From contig NZ_JBCNLB010000009.1 in NCBI RefSeq assembly GCF_039595735.1, positions 73,562 to 137,561 of the forward strand: a stretch of DNA of 64,000 nt, read 5' to 3'. Shown piece after piece: positions 22,639 through 25,860 of this stretch. A model generated the notes under the pieces. That model ran no database searches and was not told the DNA's origin. It saw only the letters and a list, made by a program, of their open reading frames with translations. A program made the position numbers and the translations under genes. The DNA is from Duganella sp. (GTDB taxonomy: Bacteria; Pseudomonadota; Gammaproteobacteria; Burkholderiales; Burkholderiaceae_D). The first letter of the stretch is position 1; each line of letters opens with the position of its first letter.

Positions 22639-22767
22639 GAACTCTTAGCGGGAAGTAACGATGAGTGTATCTTAGGCTGATCGCTGGCCGCGAGGAAGGC
22701 ACATCCCTGCAAAATCTGTTTGCAACAGTGCAAAGGGCGGCGCGGCGACGGCGCTACACTATCCGGC

Positions 22768-23964
22768 ATGATGAAGCTCCCCCCAGCCAAGCAAGCCGAG
22801 TTGCATCGCGCCCTGCAGGACGCGGCAGACGATCACGCCTTGCTGTCGGCGCCGCCGGGGCTTGAGCTGCTGGCCGGCACGCCGCCGCTGCCGACCGCCC
22901 ACATCGTCGACAGCGAACTGCACATCGTGCGCCACAAGGACAGCGGCTGCGTGCAGTTCCTGTTTCCATCGTCGACGCAGGGCATGATGCCGCAGGGTTG
23001 GGACTGGATCGTGCAAGGCACCTTGCGCGCCAAGGAGCACATCACGCAAACCATGATCGAACGCATCGAGGAGCACAGCAAGCCGGAGCGTCTGCTGTCG
23101 CTGCGCCATGGCTACGGCCAGCCGGCCACGCCGGAGGAGCTGGCGGCGGCGCGCGGGCGCAAGGTGCTGTTGCTGGTGCACGGCGTCTTCAGCTCCAGCG
23201 CCGGCGCGTTTGGCGCGCTCGACTTGCAGCCCTTGCTGGCGCGCTACGAGGGCCGCGTTTTTGCCTACGACCACTGGACCATCGCCAAGACGCCGCAGCG
23301 CAATGCACTCGACCTGCTGCTGTCGCTGCCGGCGGATGCCGGCTGGGAAATCGACATGGTTTGCCACAGCCGCGGCGGGCTGGTGGTGCGTTCGCTGCTG
23401 AGCGAGGCCCTGGCCGAGGTGGCACGGGCGCGTGCCGGGCGCATCGCTGCGGTCGGCAAGGTGATGTTCATCGCCGCGGCTAATCAGGGCTCGCCGCTGG
23501 CTTCATCTGACGAGATCGAGCATTTCCTGAACGTGGCGGCCATGCTGGCTTCGCTCAGCAATGGCATGGCCTTGGACATCGTGATCGGGCTGGCGCGCAT
23601 GGTGGTGTCGCTGGGCTACAGTCGCCCCAGCGTGCAGGCGCTGGCCAGCGGCTCGGCGCTGATCGGACAACTGGACCGCGGCGCCAGCCTGCTGACCGAG
23701 GCCAACAGCTACTACGCGCGCGCCAACTTCGATTACGGCGATTCGCTGCTGGAACGCACCGGCGCCCTGCTCTCGCGCGTGCTGCTGAATACCGCCAACG
23801 ACATGGTAGTCCCTTACGCCGGCGTCCTGCTCCCGCGGGCCGTCCCGGCCGTCGACCACATCCTCAACTTCGGCAGCGCCGAGCAAAAACAAAACGAAGT
23901 CTGGCATACCGAGTTCTTCAGCCATCCCAGAACGCAAGCGTTCCTGCTGGCCAGCCTGAGCTAG
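22768..23964 (+). CDS. Alpha/beta-hydrolase (lipase-like)
   Basis: LLLVHGVFSS oxyanion segment, VCHSRGGLVVRS nucleophile elbow, AAANQGSPLA, NDMVVP and late WHTEFF. Confidence 0.75.
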   Translation: MMKLPPAKQAELHRALQDAADDHALLSAPPGLELLAGTPPLPTAHIVDSELHIVRHKDSGCVQFLFPSSTQGMMPQGWDWIVQGTLRAKEHITQTMIERIEEHSKPERLLSLRHGYGQPATPEELAAARGRKVLLLVHGVFSSSAGAFGALDLQPLLARYEGRVFAYDHWTIAKTPQRNALDLLLSLPADAGWEIDMVCHSRGGLVVRSLLSEALAEVARARAGRIAAVGKVMFIAAANQGSPLASSDEIEHFLNVAAMLASLSNGMALDIVIGLARMVVSLGYSRPSVQALASGSALIGQLDRGASLLTEANSYYARANFDYGDSLLERTGALLSRVLLNTANDMVVPYAGVLLPRAVPAVDHILNFGSAEQKQNEVWHTEFFSHPRTQAFLLASLS

Positions 23965-24218
23965 CGCCCCAGCCGCGCCCAATGCGCCCGCACTATCTCT
24001 TCATGATGTCGGCGCAACTCTGCTTCAAAACGCTTAGGATTTTCCTTCACATAGTCAAAGAATTTCCATATTTCCGCATCAGGATTGGGCGGACCTTGAA
24101 AATAGGTCGGCACCAGATTGGCAATGTCATCGTGCACGCCGCCTACCAGCATCGGTGCCTCGCCCAGCAAGTATCGACGGAATTCCTCAATGCCTTCCAG
24201 AATACCCTTGGTATCCAT
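23961..24218 (-). CDS. 85-aa protein, degenerate HigA-like antitoxin candidate
   Basis: SD GGAGGT before ATG 24218; ILEGIEEFRRYLLGE N-terminal helix and QGPPNPD...YVKENP resemble HigA termini. Confidence 0.6.
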   Translation of the reverse strand: MDTKGILEGIEEFRRYLLGEAPMLVGGVHDDIANLVPTYFQGPPNPDAEIWKFFDYVKENPKRFEAELRRHHEEIVRAHWARLGR

Positions 24219-24246
24219 AATATTCACCTCCGATGTTTTGAGATAT

Positions 24247-24555
24247 CTATAAACCAAGAAAGTTCCCAAGCCGTCGGAAACAACCTGGAGGCCGCGAACC
24301 ATGCCACTCCACTTTTTCAACATCCATAAAACAGACGGCCCGGAATAAAGGTTCGTAAGAGTAATAGACAACGCAGCCGCCGAAATCCAGTGATCGCGAA
24401 TTCCGGGAACCGCGCAGTCTGGCTCCGATTTCCGGCTCCTCCGCAACCAGAAGCTTTAGCGCGCGAAACTCTACGGCACTAAGAGTGAGGTAAAGATTTT
24501 TTGAGAACCTGCCGCTAAATGCAAACTGCACCGGAGATTTGGATTCGGACGCCAT
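24247..24555 (-). CDS. 102-aa protein, degenerate RelE/HigB-like toxin candidate
   Basis: SD GGAGGT before ATG 24555; LSAVEFRALKLLVAEEPEIGARLRGSRNSRSLDFGGCVVYYSY follows the HigB-2/RelE pattern. Confidence 0.62.
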   Translation of the reverse strand: MASESKSPVQFAFSGRFSKNLYLTLSAVEFRALKLLVAEEPEIGARLRGSRNSRSLDFGGCVVYYSYEPLFRAVCFMDVEKVEWHGSRPPGCFRRLGNFLGL

Positions 24556-24620
24556 AACGACCTCCGGGAAGGGATAATGCTCTATTGTGCGGAGTGGTAA
24601 GCGGCACCTTCTGATCCAGA

Positions 24621-24911
24621 TCAACCGGACGCGGGGGTTTTGCGGCGGCGGCGGGCGTGTTTGGGGTCGGCGATCAGGGGACGGTAGAGTTCGATGCGGT
24701 CGTGCTCGCGCAGGATGGTGTCGCGCGGTTTTTTCTTGGCGTAGATGCCGGTTTCCAGCGTGTTCACATCCACACCCGGCAGTTCCGCCGCCAGGGCGCT
24801 GAGGGCGACCGCCTGCTCCAGCGTGGTGCCCACCGGTACTTGCAGCGCGCGCAGGAACTGCAGCGTGTCGCTGGCATAGCACACCTGGATGGGGATGGTT
24901 TCAGCCGCCAT
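24621..24911 (-). CDS. rnfH: RnfH family ubiquitin-like protein
   Basis: IQVCYA, GIYAKK and DRIELYRPLIADPK...RRRR. Confidence 0.93.
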   Translation of the reverse strand: MAAETIPIQVCYASDTLQFLRALQVPVGTTLEQAVALSALAAELPGVDVNTLETGIYAKKKPRDTILREHDRIELYRPLIADPKHARRRRKTPASG

Positions 24912-25335
24912 ACACCGTTTCCGCCCGTTTGCAGAAGGAGTCCACCATGCTGTTGGCAATCATGCCAAACACCGGACCTACCAGCTTGGCCAGCAAGGCG
25001 CTGGAAAATTCATAGTGCAGGTCGAGGTCGATCTTGCAGGCATCGTCGCGCAGCGCCTTGAAGGTCCACACGCCATCCAGGCACTTGAAAGGACCGTCCA
25101 CCAGCGTCATCTTGATGGCAGCGCCAGGCACGTTTTCATTGGCAGTGGTAAAGCTTTGCTTGACGCCGTGGTAGTTGATGCCAACACTGGCCACCACCGT
25201 GTCGCCATGGCGTTCCTTGATCTCCACACCACCGCACCATGGCAAGAATTTGGGATAGTCCTCGATGGCAGCCACCAGATCGAACATTTGTTGGGCGCTG
25301 TAACCGAGTAAAACTGATTTGTGTACTACTGCCAT
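24901..25335 (-). CDS. ratA: RatA/PasT (Coq10-like START domain) protein
   Basis: YSAQQMFDLVAAIEDYPKFLPWC, LVDGPFKCLDGVWTF and MVDSFCKRA. Confidence 0.95.
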   Translation of the reverse strand: MAVVHKSVLLGYSAQQMFDLVAAIEDYPKFLPWCGGVEIKERHGDTVVASVGINYHGVKQSFTTANENVPGAAIKMTLVDGPFKCLDGVWTFKALRDDACKIDLDLHYEFSSALLAKLVGPVFGMIANSMVDSFCKRAETVYGG

Positions 25336-25410: not shown

Positions 25411-25860
25411 ATGACCATAGCCGATAACAAAAAAGCCTTTTTTGACTACTTCATCGAGGACCGCTTTGAAGCGGGCATCGTGCTGGAAGGCTGGGAAGTC
25501 AAGGCCATCCGCGACAACAAGGTGCAGATCAAGGAAGCCTACGTCACCATCAAGGGCGACGAGCTGTTCCTGTTTGGCGCCCACATCAGCGCGCTGCCGA
25601 CCGCCTCCACCCATATCACGCCCGACATGGTGCGCACCCGCAAGCTGCTGCTGCATCGGCAGGAAATCGACAAGCTGATCGGCAAAGTCACGCGCGCCGG
25701 CTACACCCTGGTGCCGCTCAACCTGCATTACAAGGCCGGCCGCATCAAATGTGAAATCGGCCTGGCAAAAGGCAAGAAAATGCATGATAAACGTGCCACG
25801 GAGAAAGATCGCGACGGCAAGCGCGAGGTTGCGCAGGCGATGAAAACCCACCGCCGCTAA
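25411..25860 (+). CDS. smpB: SsrA-binding protein
   Basis: [32 protein letters not shown] and GKKMHDKR. Confidence 0.98.

Follow-up and report, generated by a model that had tools for sequence, protein, structure and literature searches.

We analysed a 64,000-nucleotide (nt) stretch of a Duganella sp. genome (contig NZ_JBCNLB010000009.1, positions 73,562 to 137,561; hereafter the window), and in it two small genes that follow ratA and rnfH on the minus strand. Open reading frame (ORF) 1 (24247..24555, minus strand, 102 amino acids (aa)) encodes a RelE/ParE-fold protein related to HigB-2, and ORF2 (23961..24218, minus strand, 85 aa) encodes a shortened relative of HigA-2-like antitoxins. The toxin-like gene comes first, the gap between the two genes is 28 nt, and each is preceded by a GGAGGT Shine-Dalgarno sequence (24560..24565 for ORF1 and 24226..24231 for ORF2, both on the minus strand). 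We consider it probable that the pair is a genuine, selected short-form descendant of a two-gene HigB-2/HigA-2-related cassette that lies downstream of ratA-rnfH, and that its products form a non-nuclease complex.

In a mechanically generated list of ORFs, ORF1 is enclosed by a 211-aa frame (24247-24882) and ORF2 by a 161-aa frame (23961-24446). The GC content is 0.47-0.53 over positions 23900-24600, compared with 0.62-0.70 in the flanks and 0.63 for the window, and the GC content at third codon positions (GC3) is 0.51 for ORF1 and 0.56 for ORF2, compared with 0.70-0.86 for ratA, rnfH, smpB and the DUF7379 gene on the other side of the pair. Low GC3 was seen for the pair in every lineage compared. 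A scan of the 65-nt spacer between rnfH and ORF1 found neither a terminator-like nor a sigma-70-like site; across the promoter and terminator scan, terminator-like matches occurred only inside ORF1, in a number not above that in shuffled sequence, and no promoter could be assigned. A first-pass annotation, made from the sequence alone, had described two compact, low-GC ORFs of these lengths, each with a GGAGGT motif, separated by 28 bp, buried in longer spurious frames and with no evident terminator between them and ratA-rnfH, and this description was confirmed throughout.

A repeat scan of 23800-24750 returned only short, chance-level repeats. A small palindrome, GTTTATAGATATCTCAAAAC (minus strand, 24235-24254), spans the ORF1 stop codon just 5' of the ORF2 Shine-Dalgarno sequence, and its core TAGAT.TCTC is partly kept in the other loci that carry this short form of the pair. 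The DNA sequencing runs found to contain the pair were plant and rhizosphere metagenomes.

Conservation of the pair and selection on both genes

Scans of ORF1 and ORF2 against Pfam, NCBIfam, PHROGs and PADLOC returned nothing usable, which ruled out simple membership of a known family or of a known defence system. There were three close relatives of ORF1 and nine of ORF2, all from Duganella or from metagenome contigs, and a scan of a genome collection for related loci gave three loci. We recovered the pair from the same genomic position in at least seven lineages that have diverged from one another: the window, G019/L002 (Duganella sp. SG902), L006 (D. radicis KCTC 22382), L015/L016, L017, L018 and L019. 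In every one of them both genes have an intact frame, and the GGAGG of the ORF2 Shine-Dalgarno sequence is kept across all short-form loci, in agreement with the initial view that frames and ribosome-binding sites had been preserved.

The ratio of nonsynonymous (dN) to synonymous (dS) divergence, ω, was estimated by the Nei-Gojobori method at 0.07-0.28 for ORF1 and 0.03-0.12 for ORF2, compared with 0.06-0.15 for ratA and 0.14-0.42 for rnfH; the values for the pair are rough, because its dS is saturated (about 1 to 3 or more, compared with 0.17-0.74 for the ratA and rnfH of these genomes). ORF2 is better conserved than ORF1. Both genes are under purifying selection and are not decaying. Frameshifted homologs with neutral dN/dS, which would have marked a decaying pseudogene, were not what the comparison returned: frames were intact and ω was about 0.03-0.28 over the two genes.

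The window ORF1 and ORF2 are closest to those of D. radicis (dN 0.09 and 0.08, respectively), whereas the window ratA and rnfH are closest to those of G019. In dS, the pair exceeds ratA by a factor of 3-10. It follows that the cassette has diverged further than its flanks and disagrees with them in its relationships, which suggests either that cassette alleles have been exchanged among lineages or that synonymous constraint has been relaxed persistently.

The pair is dispensable, since most of it has been deleted in one lineage (L013/L014, metagenome Duganella-like contigs; L013:3001-3351). The deletion runs from approximately codon 74 of ORF1 through ORF2 to the next gene. In this remnant ORF1 is intact to approximately residue 73 and then continues into unrelated sequence, ORF2 and the DUF7379 gene are missing, and an SBP_bac_3 gene follows directly; the deletion includes the DUF7379 gene only if that gene was once there.

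ORF1 has a RelE/ParE core without the catalytic residues of HigB2

We compared a profile of 26 ORF1-family proteins, collected by profile search (alignment A3), with all PDB sequences. At E<=0.004 it matched only Vibrio cholerae HigB-2 chains (8a0x, 5ja8, 5mje, 5ja9 and 9tv9; E 7.7e-4 to 3.6e-3). The AlphaFold2 (AF2) model of ORF1 obtained with A3 had a predicted local distance difference test score (pLDDT) of 82.5, a predicted template modelling score (pTM) of 0.70 and the topology β1-α1-α2-β2-β3-β4, with strands at residues 10-13, 53-58, 61-68 and 73-81, helices at 15-24 and 27-39, and disorder at 91-102 (pLDDT below 50). When this model was searched against the PDB with Foldseek, the best nine matches were all HigB2 (E about 1e-5; template modelling (TM) score 0.64-0.70, about 0.68), followed by PfiT, RelE and ParE. 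The original reading of ORF1 as HigB-2/RelE-like thus held in both the profile search and the structural search that had been proposed for it.

ORF1 had no Pfam match at E<=1 and no match to PF05016 (ParE), which was matched weakly by three of 28 ORF1-family members; PF06296 was matched by none of the 28 family members tested. The wider-family profile did match canonical, loop-bearing toxins of other Burkholderiaceae genomes (per-genome E 1e-9 to 1e-11). One of two such toxins passes PF06296 'RelE' (30.9 bits, cut-off 27) and the other falls just under it (22.8 bits). Alignment of A3 with the toxin that passes, using hhalign, gave E 6.8e-6 (Prob 84.6%) and again showed the loop deletion that is described below for HigB-2. 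Together, these results show that ORF1 is a RelE/ParE-core protein and that HigB2 is its closest solved structure.

V. cholerae HigB-2/HigA-2 (PDB 5JA8, 5JA9, 5JAA, 5J9I and 8A0X; PMC5416850) shares with the window pair the position of the toxin-like gene first and a RelE-type core, in which an 'LS..EYR' motif in α2 and a '(I/V)(I/V)YY' β3 strand are common to HigB-2 and ORF1, although identity between the two is only about 19%. The activity of VcHigB2 depends on Arg51, Arg64, Tyr82 and Lys84 (Hadži et al. 2017, PMC5416850). We mapped these residues onto the A3/HigB-2 hidden Markov model alignment, using the numbering of that paper with 65-IIYY-68 as the anchor. Arg51 aligns with Asp57 of ORF1, a residue invariant throughout A3; Arg64 is an unmatched insertion and so is deleted in ORF1; Tyr82 is replaced by Glu80 and Lys84 by Val82. 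As all four catalytic residues are gone or replaced, ORF1 cannot use RelE/HigB2 chemistry.

The same alignment has an 8-residue gap exactly at HigB-2 'skgkgkrg', and ORF1 accordingly lacks the basic β2-β3 loop. In VcHigB2 this loop (residues 54-63) probably binds 16S rRNA, and its replacement by AAA costs 120-fold activity (PMC5416850). The absence of the loop had been recognised in the first-pass annotation; the idea that the loop carries the catalytic residues was not upheld, since the published work connects it with ribosome binding. ORF1 also lacks the C-terminal helix α3. The PF06296 toxins (for example, those of Burkholderiaceae L026 and L032), which are remote homologs of ORF1, differ in keeping both the loop (RRGSQGKSGGVR) and a Y.K motif. 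ParE (PF05016) has the superfamily fold without the RNase residues and is a precedent for a non-nuclease 'toxin', but it ranks below HigB2 in the fold and profile searches, and its partner ParD, a ribbon-helix-helix protein, is encoded upstream, whereas the partner of ORF1 is downstream and HigA-2-like.

Residues 44-57 of ORF1 (about 24385-24426) form an Arg/Lys-rich α2-β2 loop particular to the short clade, with the pattern G.(K/R)L.GS.N(S/T)R(S/G)LD (RLRGSRNSR in the window), where long forms have G.PVGG..GLRGLD. This loop could be a new basic surface.

The short form is derived from a loop-less long-form family

Among 1.84 billion representative proteins (clusters at 50% identity), we found 35 members of the ORF1 family at E<=1e-3. 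Almost all of these are long forms with lengths of about 120-140 aa. The loop is missing from every one, and this wide family, for which neither Pfam nor NCBIfam has a model, has no invariant polar residue. Full-length members outside the clade of the window all end in a conserved C-terminal helix, ...GLKWLWDLI.

In sister genomes of Duganella, long-form proteins 27-34% identical to ORF1 (BLASTP E 1e-17) are encoded at the same place after ratA-rnfH (L003, L008, L009, L011, L012 and L020-L022; for example, Duganella sp. 1411 JOD97_001056). The synteny check proposed at the outset thus recovered the short pair after ratA-rnfH in seven lineages and the long form in the corresponding position. 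The long-form cassette shares with the window pair its locus, its loop-less core and two upstream elements spaced 22 nt apart. It differs in that its ORF1 homolog, about 125-140 aa long, carries the ...GLKWLWDLI ending, its partner is a 109-aa protein with an HTH_3 domain, its second upstream element is a good palindrome, and a gene for a membrane protein of about 225 aa usually comes next. The long form is absent from the window.

Since the loss of the loop and of the catalytic residues is common to the whole long-form family, it is an old trait and not decay of the window's pair. The proposal that the pair had lost its RNase chemistry is therefore correct as to the loss, and not as to a degeneration of this pair in particular. 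What is specific to the clade of the window is an apparent in-frame loss of approximately 24 residues of ORF1, including the C-terminal helix. In a maximum-likelihood tree, the short clade came out as monophyletic (100/100), with a long stem branch of 1.11 substitutions per site, and was sister to the long forms of the rnfH locus (Duganella and metagenome contigs), and the rest of the family was all long-form. Because it is nested in an otherwise long-form family, the short form is derived. The two forms are also linked by the same arrangement of smpB, ratA-rnfH and cassette, and by homologous upstream DNA. As read from the alignments and the tree, the losses are of two ages: the loop and the catalytic residues were lost long ago, and the losses of α3, of ORF2 length and of one palindrome are confined to the short clade. 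The pair-specific losses, of the ORF1 C-terminal helix and of one operator-like palindrome, had been missed in the earlier annotation.

ORF2 is related to HigA-2 but has no recognisable helix-turn-helix

The 109-aa long-form partner carries HTH_3 above the Pfam cut-off (25.6 and 30.3 bits, compared with 23) and matches V. cholerae HigA-2 (9tv9, 5jaa and 5j9i) over its full length (residues 9-89, E 1.4e-5). ORF2, which is 24 aa shorter than these helix-turn-helix (HTH)-bearing relatives, has in common with them an N-terminal helix, MD...I..IEE....L.GE (BLASTP, residues 1-23, E 6e-4), and a C-terminal '..NP..F..E' segment; I10, E11, G19 and E20 are invariant across short and long partners. With hhalign, ten short partners aligned with eight long ones over columns 1-71 and 1-95, respectively (Prob 75%, E 2.4e-5), with high confidence over residues 1-30 and low confidence across the HTH helices. 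Scans of ORF2 against Pfam and NCBIfam found no HTH family, and the short-ORF2 profile had only chance matches in the PDB. No XRE match was therefore obtained for ORF2 itself, and the expected HigA-2 and HTH match came by way of the long partner.

Like ORF2, HigA-2 has an amphipathic N-terminal helix ending in G-E/K; it differs in its length of 104 aa and in its XRE HTH, which is not recognisable in the 85 aa of ORF2. Residues 3-22 of VcHigA2 alone neutralise HigB2, with the helix displacing α3 of the toxin (PMC5416850). ORF2 has an isoelectric point of 4.3 over residues 1-48 and of 11.3 over residues 61-85; its C-terminal helix is basic. These comparisons show, at the level of sequence, that ORF2 descended from a HigA-2-like partner, with a helix of the toxin-binding type kept at its N-terminus and an HTH no longer recognisable. 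This agrees with the early description of ORF2 as HigA-like at both ends with its HTH lost.

Elements upstream of ORF1

Long and short cassettes share homologous DNA 5' of ORF1, in which there are two elements. Element 1 (24612..24624, minus strand) is a 12-nt dyad, TTGATCTGGATCA, and the rnfH stop codon falls within it; in short loci the stop codon is its left arm. It reads TGAG-N4-CTCA in 7/7 long loci and TGAT-N4-ATCA in 7/7 short loci, so that both arms have changed together; the short loci homologous to the window at this element are L002, L006, L013, L015, L017 and L018. In both forms GACAATG follows 22-23 nt after element 1. Element 2, which in long forms takes in this GACAATG, reads GGAAGA-CAATGAs-TCTTCC there (GGAAGA-N7-TCTTCC), with 3-6 of six arm matches compared with 0-2 of six in short forms. 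Its remnant in the window (24575..24593, minus strand; TCCGCACAATAGAGCATTA) has one of six arm matches and has lost its dyad symmetry. Two adjacent, co-oriented small genes fit the gene arrangement of a type II toxin-antitoxin system; upstream of them, the element 1 dyad is kept and the element 2 dyad is lost.

Loss of DNA binding had been proposed for ORF2. The lack of a detectable HTH and the decay of element 2 fit this proposal, but element 1 is still symmetric, which tempers the claim. ORF2 may still recognise DNA by a different route, or the site may involve a host factor or a promoter element. A role of element 1 as a cassette-specific operator is weakened by the frequency of its motif, TTGATNNNGATCA, which has 45 sites in the genome compared with about 12 expected from extrapolated window shuffles.

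Genomic context

Upstream of ORF1 lie rnfH (24621..24911, minus strand; Pfam Ub-RnfH, 4.5e-27) and ratA (24901..25335, minus strand; a Polyketide_cyc (SRPBCC) protein in Pfam and NCBIfam scans), followed by the divergent smpB (25411..25860, plus strand). On the other side, a gene for a DUF7379 hydrolase-like protein (22720..23964, plus strand; Pfam PF24096, 3.6e-34) is convergent with ORF2, and the stop codons of the two overlap by 4 nt. This protein is a DUF676-like putative serine hydrolase, and comparison with L002 indicates that its true start is probably the Met of MMKLPPAK, near 22765. The gene is present in L002, L015 and L017 and absent in L018 and L019. We rejected a functional link between it and the pair, as some short pairs have it beside them and others do not.

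The family is carried by only 4/37 genomes of the genus, most of which keep smpB-ratA-rnfH without such a pair. The site after rnfH is variable: it holds the long pair with a membrane protein, the short pair with or without the DUF7379 gene, the remnant, or nothing of the family. For this reason the proximity to smpB, ratA and rnfH is best read as that of a permissive insertion site and not as a functional link. The placement of the pair beside ratA-rnfH and smpB in the first-pass annotation was correct, and the functional link to smpB that it proposed is unsupported.

In several relatives a gene for an ADP-ribosylglycohydrolase (PF03747) or an ATC-hydrolase-like protein (PF14196) lies between rnfH and the long cassette (L011:2728-3657, L020:383-1318, L009:1018-1704 and L008:3096-3833). 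These genes could belong to a larger accessory island or be an unrelated insertion. A tblastn search with the long form found no match in plasmid and phage collections. Scans of the neighbourhood against Rfam and for tRNA and transfer-messenger RNA genes found nothing, and no ssrA-type integration site lies nearby.

A proposed non-nuclease complex and its alternatives

On the reading that we favour, ORF1 and ORF2 would act as a tight complex, in which the N-terminal amphipathic helix of ORF2 would dock on the β-sheet of ORF1, in the groove held by α3 in HigB2. That the ORF2 helix binds ORF1 we infer from the neutralisation of HigB2 by residues 3-22 of HigA2, which displace α3 (PMC5416850). ORF1 would not be an mRNA endonuclease and would act, if at all, by binding. 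Self-repression through an HTH would be weakened or remodelled, and the pair would be expressed either from the upstream region that it retains or by read-through of ratA-rnfH. We lean slightly towards an ORF1 that is attenuated or non-toxic over one that is a working toxin.

Several observations weigh against this reading. The family could have a different, unrecognised active site, though the lack of any invariant polar residue across its members speaks against one. The homology of ORF2 is moderate and lies mostly in its N-terminal 30 residues and the C-terminal segment, and its AF2 model (pLDDT 67.8, pTM 0.42) is a low-confidence four-helix chain with a helix at residues 3-17; a Foldseek search with this model found no PDB fold match and, the model being of low confidence, gives no sign of a novel fold. 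The best conserved part of ORF2, the block Y16-G42 (YL.GEAPMLVGG..DDI..LVPTYF.G), is specific to the short clade, and its conservation means that the middle of ORF2 is not a decaying linker. At element 1, the matched changes in the two arms argue that something dimeric, possibly ORF2, still binds. None of the RNA sequencing runs searched contains the pair, and the ω values carry the uncertainty of saturated dS.

The strongest alternative, which we regard as possible if doubtful, is that the pair continues to function as a type II toxin-antitoxin system, in which ORF1 is a non-nuclease, ParE-like toxin, the ORF2 helix neutralises it, and a remodelled ORF2 represses at element 1. Toxin-first order, a short spacer and strong ribosome-binding sites are consistent with this, as are purifying selection on both genes, patchy distribution (4/37 genomes of the genus), low GC3 in every lineage, and a cassette tree discordant with the flanks (D. 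radicis compared with G019). The element 1 dyad, kept with both arms changed to match, and the basic C-terminal helix of ORF2 also speak for it, and residues 3-22 of VcHigA2 suffice to neutralise its toxin (PMC5416850). Against such a system, ORF1 has neither the ribosome-binding loop nor any of the four catalytic residues, the C-terminal helix, which is conserved throughout the long family and is a plausible effector part, has been deleted, and no HTH is detectable in ORF2. There was no PADLOC match, and the search of plasmid and phage collections found no copy. ORF2 is also the more conserved of the two proteins, and an antitoxin better conserved than its toxin is unusual.

Full domestication of the cassette seems to us unlikely. 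ORF1 would then be a non-toxic RelE-fold binder and ORF2 its obligate helical partner, replacing α3, with a new cellular role for the two. If this were true, the stem of the short clade, at 1.11 substitutions per site, would record a burst of change, and the new conserved features, kept by purifying selection (the Arg-rich loop of ORF1, the invariant GEAPMLVGG..DDI..LVPTYF block of ORF2 and its basic C-terminal helix), would serve that role, for example in binding RNA or the ribosome or as a regulatory switch.

We give very little credence to recruitment of the pair to ratA-rnfH-smpB as a ribosome- or RNA-associated accessory factor co-transcribed with ratA-rnfH. ORF1 does share its strand with rnfH, 65 nt upstream of it, the spacer containing neither a terminator nor a recognisable promoter, and the rnfH stop codon is inside element 1; the RelE fold binds the ribosomal A site (PMC5416850), and the short clade has its Arg-rich α2-β2 loop, GxRLRGSRNSR. 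However, most genomes of the genus have smpB-ratA-rnfH and no such pair, and in relatives rnfH is separated from the long cassette by unrelated genes (ATC hydrolase, ADP-ribosylglycohydrolase); most of the pair has been deleted in one lineage, and the ribosome-binding loop of HigB2 is missing. Finally, we rejected decaying pseudogenes or chance ORFs with an accidental resemblance to HigBA as scarcely credible, because, although neither protein alone matches Pfam, NCBIfam, PHROGs or PADLOC and L013/L014 have the deletion from approximately codon 74 of ORF1 through ORF2, the frames are intact in at least seven lineages despite saturated dS, ω is well below 1, the ORF1 fold is predicted confidently, and sequence profile, fold search and partner homology independently indicate HigB-2/HigA-2.

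Members of the family are few and belong to a narrow bacterial group, and the parent long-form family is a gap in annotation, without a Pfam or NCBIfam model. Related genomes present a one-locus evolutionary series that runs from canonical HigB-2-type toxins, through the loop-less long form with its HTH partner and palindromic operator, to the short form. At this end point the toxin C-terminal helix, the HTH of the partner and one operator are gone, and both genes are still selected. Such a series lets one ask what a RelE-fold "toxin" does without nuclease chemistry, which part of the loop-less family is active, the C-terminal helix being the obvious candidate, and whether the DNA binding of an antitoxin and its operator decay together.

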